From positions 1 to 64,000 of IMG/VR virus record IMGVR_UViG_3300005330_000016: a stretch of DNA of 64,000 nt; one strand, 5' to 3'. How positions within the stretch are numbered: the first letter of the stretch is position 1; each line of letters begins with the position of its first letter. The position numbers were made by a program, and so were the translations under genes. This DNA comes from a virus (Duplodnaviria > Caudoviricetes). Positions 28,730-49,063 of this stretch are shown in pieces. The notes below the pieces were generated by a model that saw only the letters and a list, made by a program, of their open reading frames with translations, made no database searches and was not told where the DNA came from.

Positions 28730-30284
28730 TTACAGCCCGGTGACCTTACAGAAGACCGTTGGTCGCCAGCCGACGAAGGCCACGCGCAACTCAGCCAGAA
28801 TGGTCTGCATGTTGCGGATGAACTGGTCGTTGACGGTGCCAACGCGAACCGCACCCTGCTCGCGGTCGTAGAGGGTGACGCCCTGGTTGAAGTCACCGAT
28901 CAGGCCGGTGCCCGCTGGGATGTTCGGATCCAGCACGACCGGCAGGCCCCACAGGGTATCTGCGCCGCCCAGGCTTGGCGGGCCGAACAGGTAGGTACCG
29001 GGGGTAGCAGTAGCCGCCGACTCACGGCTGAGTCGGATGTTCTGCCAGTCGGTCGGGTTGAGCACGAACGCGGTAGGTCGGCCCAAGCCGGTCCATGCCA
29101 CGTAAGTGCGGCCCTTGTACAGCGCGTCAACGCCAGCGTCAGTGCCCTTGCCCACAACGCCGATGCCGGCCAGGTTCAAAATGCCAGTCAGGTTCTCACC
29201 TGTGCCGTCACCGCTGACGATCTGGCTCTGAAGCTTCTGCTGAAGACCGAACAGCAAGCGCTGGTCGATGATCGAGCGGATGGCCGGGGCGTCAGACAAC
29301 ATGCGGTTGGTGCATCTCTTAGCGTCAGGCTCTTTATCCTGACTTCTCCTCGTTTCCAAGGAGTGTGGGACTATATCTTCACCCTGGTAGGGTGCCGCGC
29401 ACTCGTGGGGCTTTACCGTCCGGTCTGGACTCCATGCCCTAGTCTCTGAACCTTCCGACCATTCCTGATCGGCTTGGCTGCTGATTACCTGTACGGCTTC
29501 CAGCAATTCACGCGGTAACTACAGCGTATTACTACGCTGCGCGGCCAGATTCGACCGGGATCCAGTGAGCCATGGTCCTGACGGTTGCGGTCTGCGTGCT
29601 GTATGCGAGCGCAGACTCAGGCTTGACACCGCTACCACCGAGAGCAGTCGCGTCAAAGGCCGTAGCCTCAGCGACGAACGCAGCAGAGTTGGTGAACGTG
29701 GATTCACGCACGTACTCAATGGTGTCTGAGTCGGTCGGGCTGCGCGGGATCAGATCCAGCACGTTGAGCGGGTTCTGGAGGATATCCAAGAAGCCCGGCT
29801 GGTGGTCTTCCAAGACGAACGCCTGACCCGAAGTGGACGAACCACCGCGCAACAGGGTCTTCTGGTTGGCCCAGTCCAGCATGCTGGTGCCTTCGGCCAT
29901 CGTCACATCAAGGTTGACGCGGGTCAGGTTGCTGTTGAACAGACCCGACATCTTGGCTTCGCGGTAGTCCACGCTGCCCAGGAATTGCTGGCCCGGCGAA
30001 AAGCGCCGGCCTTCGGGAGTGGTGTTGTCACCAGCCGCCGATGGTCGGTTCTGCGGCTTGCTGTGCCGATCCAGCGATTGCAGGATGCGCTTGCGCCGCA
30101 CCTCAGCGTCTTCCAGGGTGACGAGCCGTGCTTCAAGGTCGTCAACCTCTTGGAAGATCTGCTTGACGTGCTCGCGCTCTTCCTGCGGCATCTTCTCGGG
30201 GTCGTCGTATCTCTTTTCGATCAGATCGGCTTCCTGCATGCGAGTCTTGATCTCGGCAGTAGCCTCTTGAACGGTCATAGCCAT
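28730..30284 (-). CDS. HK97-fold major capsid protein, two exons join(30284..29554, 29312..28730), 437 aa
   Basis: Coiled-coil delta domain, E-loop DTIEYVRE, KPESALAY; spliced junction restores AHWIPV-TNRMLSDAP; C-terminal FIRNMQTILAELRVAF. Confidence 0.95.
29313..29553 (-). mobile_element. Group I self-splicing intron (241 nt, no ORF, IA-like) in the major capsid gene
   Basis: P GAATTGCTGGAA, Q AATCAGCAGCC, R GTTCAGAGACTA, S AAGATATAGTCC; exon-terminal U in a P1 U.G pair; terminal G; P2, P3, P6a, P8, P9 helices identifiable. Confidence 0.95.
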
Positions 30285-33357: not shown

Positions 33358-33563
33358 CGGCAGTACGCCGGCCAGTAACCGCGTATCGCGTCAGCGTTGC
33401 AGCGCTCGATGATCGCGTTGCCCGGGCCGCGCATCGTGACTTCCGCCGTAGTCATCGGGTTGACCAGGGCGAACGACAGGATGACGAGCGCTGGCAGGAT
33501 CACGAAGACCACGAAGAGCGCAGCCTCACCGCACCAGTGCCAGAAGTTGCTCGGCGGCTTCAC
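33354..33563 (-). CDS. Small membrane protein
   Basis: One hydrophobic helix ALFVVFVILPALVILSFALV. Confidence 0.55.
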   Translation of the reverse strand: MKPPSNFWHWCGEAALFVVFVILPALVILSFALVNPMTTAEVTMRGPGNAIIERCNADAIRGYWPAYCR

Positions 33564-34146
33564 GGATCCTCGCCTTCTCTTCAGCGGCTTGAGCCGTCAC
33601 AAGCATCGTGTTGCGCTCTGCCAGGCCCGCCAGCCGCGTGATCTCGCCATCGGCGGCAGTCAGCTTGGCTTCTAGCTCGGCCCGCTGAGCCGCTTCCTGT
33701 GCAGCCGTGGCGTGCGCCTGCTGGTGGATAGCGTGGATCTGGTTGCCCAGGTCGCCAAGGTCCGTCATTAGCTTGGTGTTCGTCTCGGTCTTTGCCTGTA
33801 CGTCGGCTTGAGCGTCCTGTAGCGCGGCTACCGCGTCGGCTAGCTCTTCTTGAAGCACCTTGATCTGGTCGCGCAGCTTCTTGACCTGAGCCTTCTCCCA
33901 AAGGCCCGTAGACGTTTCCTGCCAGCGCTCAGCCACGACCGGCAGCGGGTCGTCGGAATGGTCACCGAACTTGTCGCGTGCTTCATGCTGCTCGGCTCGC
34001 ATCACCGCTAGCTCTTGCAGAAGCTTGGGGATGTCGTTGCCGTACCAGGCTTGCGCACCATCGGGCGTCAGGAACGTGTTGGCACGTGTCGCCATCGCGG
34101 CCAGGTCGGCTGGCTCTAAACGAACGTACTCGGCTGTTGCCGGCAT
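33526..34146 (-). CDS. Coiled-coil protein
   Basis: Long heptad Ala/Gln/Glu pattern; ATG CCG GCA start overlaps a TGCCGGCA box. Confidence 0.7.
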   Translation of the reverse strand: MPATAEYVRLEPADLAAMATRANTFLTPDGAQAWYGNDIPKLLQELAVMRAEQHEARDKFGDHSDDPLPVVAERWQETSTGLWEKAQVKKLRDQIKVLQEELADAVAALQDAQADVQAKTETNTKLMTDLGDLGNQIHAIHQQAHATAAQEAAQRAELEAKLTAADGEITRLAGLAERNTMLVTAQAAEEKARIREAAEQLLALVR

Positions 34147-34200
34147 TCTTTCCCTCTCCCTTGATTCCATATTGACATCTCGCGAGTGCAGGCGTAAGGT
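34138..34200 (+). promoter_or_regulatory. Promoter P3 with TGCCGGCA box (drives candidate ncRNA)
   Basis: Box 34138-34145, gap 26, TTGACA 34172, 17 nt, TAAGGT 34195. Confidence 0.8.
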
Positions 34201-34206
34201 AACGGT

Positions 34207-34360
34207 AACAGAAGAAGCGGCGCGGCTAAGCCCTAACAGCCATCAGAAAGGGCAGCGTCACAGTCACCGACCCCTGGATTTAGTCGAGTGAACGTATCCG
34301 ATTAGAACGGATGGGGGCTTCGCTCAAACGAGTCACCGGGCACTCTCGCGCCGCCCTCTA
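34207..34360 (+). ncRNA. Candidate structured non-coding RNA (~150 nt)
   Basis: Own promoter, no ORF of 60 aa or more; closing stem GCGGCGCG/CGCGCCGC enclosing several hairpins. Confidence 0.55.
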
Positions 34361-34421
34361 GCCCAGGTCAGCCTTAGACCAGACTCAGCCAACGTCCACT
34401 CAACGACCCGAGTATATAGCT

Positions 34422-34490
34422 CGCCGGCATTTTGAAAACTCGCTCGAAACCCTATTGACAGTCTCGAAAAGGCATGATACGTTCAAGGGG
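34422..34490 (+). promoter_or_regulatory. Promoter P4 with CGCCGGCA box; leaderless start at 34491
   Basis: Gap 25, TTGACA 34455, 17 nt, TACGTT 34478, 7 nt to ATG. Confidence 0.8.
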
Positions 34491-34667
34491 ATGAAGAAAA
34501 CCGCATGGCCGATGGGACCAGCGCTCAGCCAGAGCCTCAAGGCCTTTGACTCAGCCAAGCATCAGGCAGAGGAAGATCGCCAGAACGCTCAGATCCGCCG
34601 ACTAGCTCGCACAATGCGATTCGCAAACCTGCGAAACACCAATCGCATTGCTTGGAAAGGAAACTGA
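34491..34667 (+). CDS. Small basic cassette protein
   Basis: Leaderless ATG, 58 aa. Confidence 0.6.
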   Translation: MKKTAWPMGPALSQSLKAFDSAKHQAEEDRQNAQIRRLARTMRFANLRNTNRIAWKGN

Positions 34668-34669
34668 CC

Positions 34670-34882
34670 GTGGACAATCGCTACCCCAACGGACTCGGCA
34701 TTGACGAGATGGGCGAGATCCTCTCGTGCCACTACTGCGGCAACTACAGCGAGCCGCTCAAAGACAACCCACGCGGCCAGGTCGTGTGCAAAAGCTTCGA
34801 GAACTGCGTTTGGAATCGCGTAGAGAACGGCTCGATGACCGAAGCTCGCGCCAAGGAACTTCTGACAAGGAAGGTGAAGTGA
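34670..34882 (+). CDS. Small Zn-binding cassette protein
   Basis: GTG after GGAAAGG SD; CHYC...C....C. Confidence 0.6.
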   Translation: MDNRYPNGLGIDEMGEILSCHYCGNYSEPLKDNPRGQVVCKSFENCVWNRVENGSMTEARAKELLTRKVK

Positions 34883-35154
34883 TGGCAAGCCCGCTGGTTT
34901 GGAAGGTCTACAACGACATGGGCGAGATGGTCGCCGCCACCATGCACGCGGAAGACGCCGCGATTATGGTCGCCACCACCGATAGCGGCAAGATCAAGGT
35001 TGACGGGCGCGTGGTATGGACCGAAGGGCTTGAGAGTCAGCCCGCCAGCTACAGCTACGACCAGGCCGCGAGTCTGATGCATGCCCGTCGCCGGGAGCAT
35101 TGGAATCAGCGACTTGAACGACTGCGCTTCGCAGTCACCGGAAGGGGGTCCTAA
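34882..35154 (+). CDS. Hypothetical cassette protein
   Basis: TGATG coupling; MASPLVWKVY... Confidence 0.6.
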   Translation: MASPLVWKVYNDMGEMVAATMHAEDAAIMVATTDSGKIKVDGRVVWTEGLESQPASYSYDQAASLMHARRREHWNQRLERLRFAVTGRGS

Positions 35155-35345
35155 TGACCCATCTCGTTTGCATCAGCCGCCGCAAGGCTGACCGCTTTCT
35201 ACCGTTCCTGATCTGCCAGGAGCACTACGCAACCCTGATCGCAGCGGATCAGGTCAAATACGCGGTCTGTGACAAAGACTGCGGTTGTAGCGCCGCCGAC
35301 TGCTGGCGCTGTGATGACGGGAGGGATGACGATGATCAAGCGTAG
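35154..35345 (+). CDS. Small Cys-rich cassette protein
   Basis: TAATG coupling; multiple Cys. Confidence 0.5.
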   Translation: MTHLVCISRRKADRFLPFLICQEHYATLIAADQVKYAVCDKDCGCSAADCWRCDDGRDDDDQA

Positions 35346-35973
35346 GGACACTCAACGCCTCAAGGTCTACCGCGCCGGTTGGATAGCTCTGCCCGAAGAC
35401 GTTATCGGCAACTCGCTACCGGTCGTTCAGGCTTACGTTGATCGCGTATGCAACGCGGCGTGGTTCCGCCGTCGATGGGGCACCAAAAAGATCACCGTCA
35501 AGTTCAAGAAAGGCACCGGCGGCTACAACCCGGCCTACAGCAACGTGATTGTGGTCGGGCAGAACGCTACAGGACGCCTGGGGCGCGCTCCGGGTGCCAC
35601 CAAGGCCACTGTGCTGCACGAGATGGCCCACGTGCTCACCGGTCACTGTAACGGAGCCTGGCATGGCCCTGAGTTCGCGCGCATCCTGCTAGAGCTAGTC
35701 GGCTTCGAGTTCGGGCCAGTGACTTCCGAAAACCTCAAAGCCGCCTACAAGACACAGCGGGTCACAGTGGGTAAGTCGCTCACGCTCAAGCCTGCTGACG
35801 CAACGCCCGCACCGCGCCCGAAACTCAAGGCGTGGCGCGTCGTGATTGGTGACCAGTCGTTTCAGATCGAAGGAGCAAACCTGCTCGCGGCAGTTCGCCA
35901 CATTAGCAACATGGCTACGCTAACCACTGCAACCGACATCCGAATCTACAAGTCAAGGAGAGTAAGCAAGTGA
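35332..35973 (+). CDS. HExxH zinc metallopeptidase (SprT/Rv0185-like)
   Basis: VQAYVDRV, TVLHEMAHVL...HGPEF motif. Confidence 0.75.
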   Translation: MIKRRDTQRLKVYRAGWIALPEDVIGNSLPVVQAYVDRVCNAAWFRRRWGTKKITVKFKKGTGGYNPAYSNVIVVGQNATGRLGRAPGATKATVLHEMAHVLTGHCNGAWHGPEFARILLELVGFEFGPVTSENLKAAYKTQRVTVGKSLTLKPADATPAPRPKLKAWRVVIGDQSFQIEGANLLAAVRHISNMATLTTATDIRIYKSRRVSK

Positions 35974-36176
35974 CCCACGGAGGAAAGCGCCCAGGCTCGG
36001 GCGCAAAGCCCAAGGGGGCTGACGGCAAGAACCTGACTCTACGCTTCTACGGGGCTGACCGTGAGCGGATCGCTAACTGGCGCATGTGGTACGCGCTACC
36101 GTCTGACGCAGCCGCCGTGCGGCACATGATGCTGGTCGCGGAAGCCGCTCGAAGTCGAATCGCCGGCGAATCCTGA
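35970..36176 (+). CDS. Small DNA-binding protein (GG.RPGSG.KP motif plus ribbon-helix-helix-like body)
   Basis: THGGKRPGSGAKP then beta-strand and two helices; paralogue at 61587. Confidence 0.6.
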   Translation: MTHGGKRPGSGAKPKGADGKNLTLRFYGADRERIANWRMWYALPSDAAAVRHMMLVAEAARSRIAGES

Positions 36177-36223
36177 AACTCGTTTGAAAAACTATTGACA
36201 GGTCTGCGCTACGGGTGTATCTT
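36160..36223 (+). promoter_or_regulatory. Promoter P5 with perfect TCGCCGGCGA box
   Basis: Box 36161-36168, gap 26, TTGACA 36195, 17 nt, TATCTT 36218. Confidence 0.85.
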
Positions 36224-36229
36224 GAGAGT

Positions 36230-36480
36230 GTCAAGGGAACCTGAAAAACAAAAGAGAGTCCAAGCGACCGTCGCGTATCGAGTGTACGAAGAGCGGAAGT
36301 GGGTAAGAGGGCCTTGGGAACCCTGGCTGCATCGGCAACAGGGAGTCGTACCAAACCTGTAATTGGGATGGATGTACAGTAACCACCTAACGGTGGCGAA
36401 ACCCCACACGCAGCACCAGTGCTCCAGTTCCCAGGTGAACTGGCCGGCCAGTCAAGCAGACTCTCTTGGTTCCCCTGGCA
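36230..36480 (+). ncRNA. Candidate large structured RNA or structured 5' leader (~250 nt)
   Basis: GGGAACC/GGTTCCC and AAGAGAGTC/GACTCTCTT closing helices; internal CCACC/GGTGG, CCAGTTC/GAACTGG, CTGTA/TACAG stems. Confidence 0.6.
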
Positions 36481-36514
36481 ACACCCACAAGATCAAATCG
36501 AAAGGGGATCTTCG

Positions 36515-36715
36515 ATGGAAGATTCTTTCGCCTTCCCAGTCTCGGACTGGACTCCCCAGGTTGGGGAAATCATCGAGAACTTCGGGCAGATCGCCCGGAT
36601 TCTCGCCTTCGATCCCGAACGTGGGATCCTAGTCAGGGCCATGCCGGGCCAGGGCTTCGGCAAAGGCCGGGATCGCTGGTACGCGAATCCCGAGAAGATC
36701 CGCCCGGTGCGCTAG
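36515..36715 (+). CDS. Small SH3-like-fold hypothetical protein
   Basis: AAAGGGGA SD; PQVGEIIE...ARIL..D..RGILV...W pattern. Confidence 0.6.
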   Translation: MEDSFAFPVSDWTPQVGEIIENFGQIARILAFDPERGILVRAMPGQGFGKGRDRWYANPEKIRPVR

Positions 36716-36732
36716 GACCGGGCTTTTTCTTT
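36702..36732 (+). terminator. Rho-independent terminator
   Basis: GCCCGGT-loop-ACCGGGC followed by TTTTTCTTT. Confidence 0.85.
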
Positions 36733-37312
36733 ATGCTTGCCCGCCAACAATTGGGCTGATCGTGAGATGACAGTGCGGGTGAGCTAGCTCGGGCGCGTTG
36801 TTTACCGCCACTACCGTGCCATCCCGGCCAGCACAGAACGAATCGTAGTCGCCGTCGTGGACGAGCAATGCGGTCACTATGCCACGACCAAGGGTCTGGA
36901 ACTTCTGCACGGTCGCCTGTAGCTGAGCCTTCTGTAGCTCGGTCTTCGCCACGGTCAACGAGCGATGCTTCCACGTGCGCGTGAACAGGCTGTCAATACC
37001 TTCGAAGTCTTCCGCCCCGTACGCGATCTCGTACGGCGTCAGCCCTCTGCTAGCGCCGTCTGCGATGCGCTGGGCTATCTGCTTCCGCGTGGCTGCGTCC
37101 ACGGCCACGGCACCGGCGCGAGCGTTGAGAATGGCAGAACGCACAGCCGCGTCATCGAGCGGTACCGGCCCTAGGTCAAGCAACCTGATCGTCAAGCCGT
37201 GAACGGCCTTGGCAATCGTGCCGTACCACTTGACGAAAATCAACGTGAGCAGCGCTAGCTCCAGATCGTTATCGCGTACGTCATGCTCTTCGTCAGCTTT
37301 GGTCGCCGGCAT
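36731..37312 (-). CDS. Minor head morphogenesis protein (Mu F / SPP1 gp7-like)
   Basis: RSLTVAKTEL, C..RDG, HPHCHLTI motif; follows portal on the same strand. Confidence 0.8.
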   Translation of the reverse strand: MPATKADEEHDVRDNDLELALLTLIFVKWYGTIAKAVHGLTIRLLDLGPVPLDDAAVRSAILNARAGAVAVDAATRKQIAQRIADGASRGLTPYEIAYGAEDFEGIDSLFTRTWKHRSLTVAKTELQKAQLQATVQKFQTLGRGIVTALLVHDGDYDSFCAGRDGTVVAVNNAPELAHPHCHLTISPIVGGQA

Positions 37313-37373
37313 CTCTAACATTCGTCTTGAAAACCCCTTGACAGATCTAGAGCGGCGGGCGTAAGCTACGGAC
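37304..37373 (+). promoter_or_regulatory. Promoter P6 with CGCCGGCA box; leaderless start at 37374
   Basis: Gap 26, TTGACA 37338, 18 nt, TAAGCT 37362, 6 nt to ATG. Confidence 0.85.
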
Positions 37374-37733
37374 ATGAGCAACCACATCGAGAACCTGAGC
37401 GACGAACTGGTAGCCGCGAACGCCGAGAGCCTGAGCCTTCAGGACGGCATGATGAGCCTGGTTAGCTACCTGATGAGCGACAAGTTCGCCACTGACCAGA
37501 ACGTGAACGTAGCCGATGTCATCCTGCGGATCTCTGAGACGCTGAGCGCAGCACGTGACGAGCGTGACGCGGCACTGCTCAACGAGCGCGGCCCGAAGCC
37601 CGTAGCAAGCTTCAAAGGCTGGGCTTGCCCGATCTGCCGCGAAACGCTGCAAGACAGCCCGATCTGGGACGCCGACGCCAAGGCTGAGCGTCGGATGCGA
37701 GATCACTGGACAGCCAACCACAAGGCCCGCTAA
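37374..37733 (+). CDS. Cassette protein with C-terminal C2H2-like zinc finger
   Basis: WACPIC...RDHWTANH. Confidence 0.7.
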   Translation: MSNHIENLSDELVAANAESLSLQDGMMSLVSYLMSDKFATDQNVNVADVILRISETLSAARDERDAALLNERGPKPVASFKGWACPICRETLQDSPIWDADAKAERRMRDHWTANHKAR

Positions 37734-37756
37734 GCGGGCCGGAAAGGCAAACGACC

Positions 37757-37930
37757 ATGAAGCAACCAATGACGCCCGAGAAGCTCGCTCAGAACGCATA
37801 CCTGAAGCGAGAGCGCATGTACCAGATCATGCACATCCGCGAGCAGGCGAACTATGACGAGCACGTCGTGGACTTCGCCGGCGAGCCAGTTAGCCTCAGC
37901 GAACTGGCCGAGTTGTGGGTGCCGGCATAA
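37757..37930 (+). CDS. Small hypothetical cassette protein (57 aa, MKQPMTPEK...)
   Basis: GGAAAGG SD; manually translated. Confidence 0.55.
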   Translation: MKQPMTPEKLAQNAYLKRERMYQIMHIREQANYDEHVVDFAGEPVSLSELAELWVPA

Positions 37931-37980
37931 CGCCGGCATTCCCTATTGACAGATCAAGCGCGCAGGAGTAAGTTACGAGT
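37875..37980 (+). promoter_or_regulatory. Promoter P7 with three boxes; leaderless start at 37981
   Basis: TCGCCGGCGA 37875, TGCCGGCA 37920, CGCCGGCA 37931; TTGACA 37946, 17 nt, TAAGTT 37969, 6 nt to ATG. Confidence 0.85.
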
Positions 37981-38190
37981 ATGAACAGCACCCAAGCAGC
38001 CAAGCTCCAGAGCTTTGAAGAACTCGCCGCCCGCCAGATCGACCGACTGGCCCAGTCGCCCGAGAGCAAGATGGTTCAGAACGAGACTCGCGGGTTCCGC
38101 CTGACTTGGACGAAGGCTCTGGTCACCAAGTACGGATGCGACAAAGCCGACATCAACGCAGCTTGGAATCGAGCGAAGGAGGGACGATGA
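37981..38190 (+). CDS. Small hypothetical cassette protein
   Basis: Leaderless, 69 aa. Confidence 0.65.
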   Translation: MNSTQAAKLQSFEELAARQIDRLAQSPESKMVQNETRGFRLTWTKALVTKYGCDKADINAAWNRAKEGR

Positions 38191-38348
38191 TCCCAACCTA
38201 CACCGTGATCTACGGATCACACACCCTCAACACCGAGTGGGTTCTCGGAACCTACTCCACCATCGAAGCCGCAATGCGGCAGTTCGATTCCCTCTCTTCC
38301 ATCCGCCACAGCGACGAGTACGTCGTTGTTCACACTGAGTGGGCCTAG
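38187..38348 (+). CDS. Small hypothetical cassette protein (53 aa)
   Basis: ATGA coupling, GGAGGG SD. Confidence 0.55.
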   Translation: MIPTYTVIYGSHTLNTEWVLGTYSTIEAAMRQFDSLSSIRHSDEYVVVHTEWA

Positions 38349-38371
38349 TTGGCCCACTCGCGGAGCAAGCC

Positions 38372-38563
38372 ATGACCACCAACAAGTCACCGTGGGAACT
38401 TCTAGCCTACGCCCAGGGCCGCAAGGCTTACATGATCGGGCGAACGCTCGCCAGCAACCCGTATACGTCCGGCTCGGATCTCGCACAAGCCTTCTACGAT
38501 GGATTCGATGACGAGATGCACCGACCTGATCGCCCGCTTGACCCGCCGGACTTGCCACTCTAG
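38372..38563 (+). CDS. Rmf/CrpP-fold-like small protein
   Basis: AYAQGRKAYMIG...NPY...AFYDGF pattern resembling ribosome modulation factor. Confidence 0.5.
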   Translation: MTTNKSPWELLAYAQGRKAYMIGRTLASNPYTSGSDLAQAFYDGFDDEMHRPDRPLDPPDLPL

Positions 38564-40153: not shown

Positions 40154-40257
40154 AAGAGAGAGAGGACCGCAAGTAAGGGGCCTGGGATCACCCGAAAGGG
40201 TCTGTCCCAATCTCACGAGACTGCGGATAGGGGGTTCGAATCCCCCCTCTCTTACCA
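40154..40257 (+). ncRNA. tRNA-like RNA: 7-bp acceptor stem, canonical T-arm and encoded ACCA, without a canonical anticodon arm
   Basis: AAGAGAG/CTCTCTT-ACCA; GGGGG-TTCGAAT-CCCCC; interior CCGCA/TGCGG, TGGGA/TCCCA, ACCC-GAAA-GGGT. Confidence 0.75.

Positions 40258-48988: not shown

Positions 48989-49063
<75 letters not shown>

Follow-up and report, generated by a model that had tools for sequence, protein, structure and literature searches.

Comparison of sequence variants points to a genuine and previously undescribed RNA domain, conserved and held together by compensatory changes, in a phage of soil and rhizosphere. The window examined here is a stretch of 64,000 nucleotides from the beginning of a complete IMG/VR virus record of 77,982 bp, and the RNA element occupies positions 36230-36479 on its plus strand. 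In the consensus fold it is a multi-branched molecule of about 245-250 nt whose two ends pair over about 20 bp. An initial annotation made from the letters of the window had proposed a novel phage non-coding RNA at this place, and the proposal is borne out by the covarying structure, the lack of coding capacity, the promoter and the absence of any match in Rfam.

The element lies immediately 3' of a sigma-70-type promoter (TTGACA-17-TATCTT, 36195-36223, 10/12 matches), as the initial annotation had pointed out, and the promoter sequence is identical across all variants of the locus. A perfect palindromic box, TCGCCGGCGA (36160-36169), stands 25 nt 5' of the -35 hexamer, and the position of its GCCGGC is unchanged in the two variant relatives, L026 and L028. 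The spacing of the promoter predicts a transcript start at about 36230. Some 285 nt without a credible open reading frame (ORF) separate the promoter from an ATG at 36515, the layout being TATCTT-GAGAGTGT-[283 nt]-ATG. This ATG opens a 66-amino acid ORF (36515-36715, plus strand) that would be co-transcribed with the RNA and that ends in the sole terminator of the unit, an intrinsic-terminator-like hairpin followed by a T-run (36702-36723); the RNA element has no terminator of its own.

The RNA belongs to a plus-strand cassette of small genes (about 34.2-36.7 kb), in which ORFs of 66 and 68 amino acids lie next to it. The cassette is flanked by two minus-strand head genes, one coding for a 218-amino acid head-morphogenesis-like protein (36731-37387) and the other being the next late gene (33526-34170). 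In relatives at 51-73% portal identity the portal, head-morphogenesis and subsequent late genes are nearly contiguous and the cassette is missing. Plus-strand cassettes are interposed among the minus-strand late genes of the window at 34200-36730 and 37374-38560, and relatives L010-L019 are mostly devoid of them. If late transcription reads through the cassettes, their RNAs, including the one starting at 36230, would be fully complementary to the late transcript. A second ORF-less stretch (34170-34420, plus strand) comes after a promoter that is again of this type (TTGACA at 34172), with a further GCCGGC box and promoter on its 3' side at about 34424-34460.

Core motifs and proteins of the neighbourhood, used as queries, yielded only three distinct variants of the RNA, all of them from close relatives in rhizosphere or soil assemblies: that of the window (W), which is identical to L030-L032 from other samples; L026, contributed by a scan of metagenomes; and L028, which is identical to L029 and to the 5'-truncated L002, L009 and L027. 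Examination of contigs from four DNA runs revealed extra variants, and in a further soil run the contigs carry the same variant letters in helices H2 and HP3 and add a variant of the 5' region. Among the public runs that contain the element, none of those listed is an RNA run. A model of eight helices and 56 pairs was scored on the alignment (A5) of the three variants, and 98.2% of its cells are canonical. The initial annotation had named a lack of covariation among homologues as evidence that would count against an RNA; in fact 8/56 pairs are changed on both sides and still paired, a number reached by 0/500 shuffles. When the partners were slid by 1-3 columns, paired cells fell to 35-45%, with at most one double-changed pair.

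The terminal helix begins with GUCA (H0) and GGGAACC (H1) at 36230-36241, which pair with 36468-36479 and are invariant in the three variants; the pairing of GGGAACC (36235-41) with GGTTCCC (36468-74) proposed from the sequence is thus present. It is followed by an A-rich bulge of 10 nt, UGAAAAACAA (36242-36251), which undergoes A to C changes and remains unpaired, and by the 5' strand of H2, AAGAGAGTC and one further C (36252-36261), which pairs with 36458-36467. The pairing of AAGAGAGTC (36252-60) with GACTCTCTT (36459-67) around an A-rich bulge had also been proposed, and it covaries: two pairs of H2 are changed on both sides in L028, where AAGAGAGTC/GACTCTCTT becomes AGAGGATCC/GGATCCTCT, and the soil run has the same variant letters. 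On the 3' side the strands of H2, H1 and H0 follow one another as GACTCTCTT-GGTTCCC-C-TGGC (36458-36479), with an invariant tail CCTGGCAACA; the 3' tail GGTTCCCCTGGCAACA shows no change in any variant.

Within this helix lie a fast-evolving 5' domain (36262-36298), which the three variants fold differently and for which no consistent fold emerges, and a core domain (36299-36407). The core is closed by helix Pa, GTGGG/CCCAC (36299-303 and 36403-07), which encloses a purine-rich invariant strand of 17 nt (36304-36320) without a nested partner and three hairpins, HP1 (36321-36343), HP2 (36345-36377) and HP3 (36383-36396). A variable linker (36408-36423) leads to HP4 (36424-36443). Both junctions, two in total, are multi-way in the consensus fold, and the molecule is not a rod.

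Pa, HP3 and HP4 had all been noticed in the sequence and all of them covary. One pair of Pa is changed on both sides (GTGGG/CCCAC to GTGAG/CTCAC). Two pairs are changed in HP3, CCACC-TAAC-GGTGG in the window, whose stem passes from CCACC/GGTGG to CCGTC/GGCGG and CCGGC/GCCGG, so that three stems carry one invariant UAAC loop. In HP4 both stem and loop are replaced in the relatives and the pairing is kept (CCAGTTC/GAACTGG to CCAGCC/GGCTGG and TCAGCC/GGCTGA), with three pairs changed on both sides. Five helices are kept by compensatory change, H2, Pa, HP3 and HP4 among them. H0, H1, HP1 and HP2 never vary among just three closely related variants, and covariation therefore neither supports nor contradicts them. 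Two other proposed pairings are not supported by the comparison. CTGTA/TACAG shows no covariation and has one pair broken in L026, and the 10-bp hairpin HP2 fits better, in all three variants. In the GTACGA/TCGTAC pseudoknot the 5' strand varies freely (GTATCT in L026, GCACTC in L028) opposite a TCGTAC that never changes, and the pairing therefore fails.

Conservation is very uneven along the RNA. A 91-nt core has 87-89/91 columns identical (96-98%), against about 30-66% in the segments beside it, the 5' domain and HP4. The 5' domain has 21-27/32 identical columns (21/32 between W and L028), the linker 7-9/13 and HP4 6-8/20. An aptamer-like conserved core surrounded by variable peripheral helices (HP3, HP4 and H2 covary) is a property shared with riboswitches.

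The folding energy of the window copy is unremarkable (z-score -1.0 for 36225-36515 and -1.5 for 36232-36476), so the case for structure rests on the comparison of variants, not on energy; L028, the most divergent relative, has a folding z-score of -3.6. A coding region, which the initial annotation had also listed as a finding that would speak against an RNA, is ruled out, since an indel of 1 nt at 36333 and a net indel of 5 nt further downstream break every frame between variants. A small peptide encoded within the RNA was rejected on the same frame disruption.

In the window copy the minus strand gives a better z-score (-2.7) than the plus strand, which would favour a minus-strand RNA. The invariant and variant G-U pairs would however become C-A mismatches on that strand, and these pairs together with the direction of the promoter assign the RNA to the plus strand. 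An element acting at the DNA level, such as a MITE-like inverted repeat, an operator or an origin, would agree with an inverted repeat that reaches into untranscribed DNA (36219-31 with 36481-93) and with an internal palindrome, GGCCGGCC, similar to the promoter boxes. A 6-nt deletion in L028 nevertheless removes the extension of the repeat, the palindrome of L028 is devoid of GCCGGC, and neither a MITE nor an operator would be expected to show compensatory changes in four internal helices. The element is moreover single-copy in the phage genome, with no target duplication at its junctions and no other insertion sites found, and it is therefore not a MITE. Taken with chance complementarity, the DNA-level and minus-strand readings are the most improbable of those considered.

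Some contacts may extend beyond the nested fold. The palindrome ACTGGCCGGCCAGT (36439-36452) reads GACCGGTC in L028, where it is palindromic too, and it may pair with GGCC at 36310-13 as a pseudoknot or may mediate dimers; the variants retain this 4-bp pseudoknot with a single G-U pair. The 17-nt core strand has two candidate partners outside the core, the GGCC of the palindrome and the 3' strand of the terminal helix. Conversely, the 3' strand GGTTCCCCTGGC has two sites, the 5' end and the invariant strand 36311-22, to which at least 10/12 of its bases are complementary. Two such sites occurred in 0.02% of shuffles and one in 3.1%; a second such site has a p-value of about 0.03. As far as sequence can tell, the dual partners, invariant in all three sequences, may represent a switch, a pseudoknot or the relic of a duplication. 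A new class of RNA switch or catalyst, in which GGTTCCCCTGGC would toggle between the 5' end of the transcript and 36311-22, seems to us a long shot. Were it true, the state of the conserved four-way-junction core would govern, through the toggle, whether the 5' end is exposed, and from there processing or expression of the small protein, and the arrangement would constitute a regulatory or ribozyme architecture without described relative.

The RNA is joined to the 66-amino acid ORF by a linker (36480-36514) that carries the Shine-Dalgarno sequence AAAGGGGA (36501-08) and has a 6-nt deletion in L028. The start region can form a hairpin, CGAA..GGGAUCUUC-[GAUG]-GAAGAUUCU-UUCG (36499-36530), in which the Shine-Dalgarno stem is paired with codons 2-4 and the AUG lies in the loop. 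L028 retains this hairpin through two double-changed pairs, of which one goes with a codon change from Asp to Asn, an observation made on two sequences and with no statistic attached. A smaller hairpin predicted by the initial annotation, AAGATC (36489-94) with GATCTT (36507-12), is indeed present as a complementarity, and it is excluded by the stronger start hairpin. In folds of the full transcripts of W and L028, the RNA domain closes on itself from the first transcribed bases (GUCA/UGGC) and the start hairpin folds apart from it, with about 20-25 unpaired nt between the two.

Homologues of the 66-amino acid ORF share 71-88% identity. In L021 and L022, GAGTGT stands between a promoter of this type and the ATG, which makes their mRNAs leaderless; the homologue in L023 is leaderless too, and those in L024 and L025 have leaders of about 35-40 nt or less. 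The leaderless homologues are also driven by the same promoter type. The RNA is absent from all five loci (L021-L025), a covariance-model search included. Because these homologues are leaderless or short-leadered and lack the RNA, the RNA and the 40-nt linker with its Shine-Dalgarno sequence constitute a lineage-specific addition. Judged by this comparison of loci, the added RNA and the linker carrying AAAGGGGA would have turned a leaderless gene into a leadered one. In the short leaders L025:240-311 and L024:1660-1703 the start codon likewise lies in a small hairpin (GGUCC-ACAU-GGACC), and structure at the start may be typical of the gene family as a whole. The AlphaFold model of the 66-amino acid protein has a pLDDT of 54.8, too low for a structure search. 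Its nearest protein-language-model clusters are unnamed and labelled mostly Acidobacteriota, which is a weak lead on host or function, and its nearest named family, the FtsZ inhibitor KilR, scores 0.87, which is the level expected by chance.

These observations bear on the possibility that the RNA is a cis-regulatory leader, in which the domain would sense a ligand, a protein or temperature and control translation of the 66-amino acid ORF via the start hairpin. Its position in the 5' UTR, the lack of its own terminator and the retention of the hairpin 36499-36530 through two double-changed pairs all agree with such a role, as do the ability of AAGATC (36489-94) to compete for the same strand and the switch-like choice of GGTTCCCCTGGC between the 5' end and 36311-22. 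Like a riboswitch or another structured 5' leader, the element has a conserved folded domain 5' of a Shine-Dalgarno and start hairpin, and competing complementary strands. It differs in its closing helix of about 20 bp, which is very long and much more stable than a ligand-dependent P1, and in having no strand in common with the expression platform: in neither fold, W or L028, is the Shine-Dalgarno hairpin linked to the domain by pairing or able to exclude the closing helix through a shared strand, and the possible alternative pairings between domain and platform are only weak ones. Every putative switch strand is in addition invariant. The gene association is not conserved either, the 66-amino acid gene lacking the RNA in four or more other contexts (L021, L023, L024 and L025), and the gene implies no ligand. 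The terminal helix and the RNA-less homologues argue against a classical riboswitch, and we regard a cis-regulatory leader in general as unlikely, though it is the main rival of the reading preferred below.

Searches for further copies traced the RNA to a single small lineage of uncultured phages from soil and rhizosphere, and to no other. In BLASTN, the phage, plasmid and E. coli collections yielded nothing that matches the RNA; core-motif scans of IMG/VR retrieved only an already known relative and chance matches in coding regions; and the core motif had no copy in 185,579 species genomes, a single match being due to chance and rejected by the covariance model. A covariance model, R1, built for the search of homologues found nothing new in 12 portal-related loci, in five whole related virus records or in the phage's own genome. 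The RNA is absent from relatives at 51-73% portal identity, among them a complete 61-kb genome, and from the loci of the homologues (L035, L036) of the upstream 68-amino acid ORF. It is thus an accessory, inserted component of the genome. Duplex scans of the phage genome for trans targets with four invariant segments yielded only the self-complement and ordinary extremes.

The element matches no known RNA family. Rfam 15 was searched with 4227 models, including raiA, ROOL, GOLLD, HEARO, 6S, RNase P, tmRNA, Y RNA, pRNA, riboswitches and ribozymes, a check that the initial annotation had recommended. No match on the element was obtained at gathering score; a search of 901 nt at E<=10 gave none on it either, and one of 265 nt under lax filters brought up no match of any kind. 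Elsewhere in the window, the same scan does recover a group I intron as well as a tRNA. The intron lies in the capsid gene (29346-29563, minus strand; RF00028, 74.7 bits, E 3.9e-17), and the tRNA-Met (CAT) at 48989-49063 (minus strand) is the only canonical tRNA of the window. RNase P-like and tmRNA-like readings were dropped, as they consisted of short motif resemblances in a different module order, with no support from Rfam.

If the element were a ribozyme that cleaves or splices itself, or a selfish RNA of another sort, it would remove itself and restore a short-leader mRNA. Insertion-like behaviour relative to the leaderless homologues, the group I intron in the capsid gene of the same phage and a compatible size and conserved core lend this some appeal, and group I introns also resemble the element in having an A-rich bulge and several hairpins around the core. 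No ribozyme or intron model matches the element, however, RF00028 missing it while finding the capsid intron at 74.7 bits, and no arrangement of P7 and G-binding site can be assigned. The start at about 36230, inferred from promoter spacing, leaves a 5' exon of 0-2 nt, in effect none, and the element is single-copy without other insertion sites found. This origin seems very improbable to us.

Orphan RNA motifs that comparative genomics has uncovered in phages and metagenomes, those of the Weinberg type with the larger GOLLD and ROOL included, are comparable in being promoter-driven, non-coding, multi-branched and supported by covariation, as well as phage-borne and accessory. The RNA described here matches none of those in Rfam 15 in sequence or structure; GOLLD and ROOL are far larger, and it differs from these orphan RNAs in being represented by three variants only and in occupying the 5' UTR that precedes a small ORF. 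The pairing of 5' and 3' ends in a long bulged helix recalls 6S RNA, Y RNA and the pRNA of phi29, as does a possible self-complementary sequence permitting oligomerisation, and phi29 pRNA is further evoked by the location among head-assembly genes, in keeping with the function of pRNA. However, 6S RNA is a rod with a large central bubble mimicking an open promoter, a shape that the present RNA does not share. An essential packaging RNA is excluded because a complete relative with the same portal lacks the element. No Ro/TROVE protein was matched among the proteins of the phage (a Ro protein of the host is conceivable), and no RVT_1 match indicative of a reverse transcriptase was obtained in the complete 78-kb record; the phage-encoded partners that Y RNAs and retron RNAs would need are thereby removed.

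A further promoter-driven RNA of the window, at 40154-40257 (plus strand), is tRNA-like: its T-arm reads GGGGG-TTCGAAT-CCCCC, its acceptor stem has 7 bp and its ACCA end is encoded. This tRNA mimic is undetected by ARAGORN and by the tRNA model of Rfam, and nhmmer found no copy of it in the contig of the closest relative (L009). The initial annotation had remarked that the AAGAGAG/CTCTCTT helix of the 36230 RNA is identical to this acceptor stem; the identity is real in the window, over 7 bp, and is not kept in L028. The local alignment score of the two RNAs was reached by 19/500 shuffles and by 51/981 random genome segments. A link between them was rejected as an established relationship, given this chance-level similarity and the loss of the shared helix sequence in L028.

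The reading that we tentatively prefer, while holding it to be somewhat short of probable, is that of an autonomous, end-sealed non-coding RNA module whose core binds some factor and which is co-transcribed with the small gene. Transcription would proceed from about 36230, and the first bases, pairing with the 3' tail, would seal both ends in a long helix. The sealed ends would protect the RNA from decay that depends on the 5' end, and the long helix could be cleaved by a double-strand-specific RNase. The working surface would be the invariant core, made of the four-way junction, the purine-rich 17-nt strand and the UAAC loop, and it would bind a host or phage factor. The RNA would then act as an autonomous module, either as a stable 5' domain or in excised form, and not as a sensor for the 66-amino acid gene. 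The separate folding of the domain and the Shine-Dalgarno hairpin in W and L028, as well as the homologues of the gene that lack the RNA, speak for such a module. The lack of its own terminator and the conserved start hairpin speak against it, and a cis-acting leader fits these two features equally well.

5'-terminal stem-loops, such as that of the ompA leader, stabilise bacterial mRNAs. An end-paired domain that shields the mRNA from decay and has no further function would agree with a helix that starts at the predicted transcript start or at most 5 nt from it. A simple hairpin would suffice for that purpose, and the 91-nt near-invariant core, the invariant tetraloop and the 17-nt invariant strand suggest a sequence-specific function instead, which makes stabilisation or insulation alone rather improbable.

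The structured phage RNA reported here is real and new, and its narrow distribution limits its immediate value. If confirmed, it would add a new family to the few complex phage-borne RNAs of more than 200 nt. It shows that a phage gene without a leader can gain both a large structured one and a Shine-Dalgarno site. Besides a group I intron, this phage seems to have two more promoter-driven RNAs that contain no ORF, and it may therefore be a useful system for the study of RNA-based accessory functions in soil phages.
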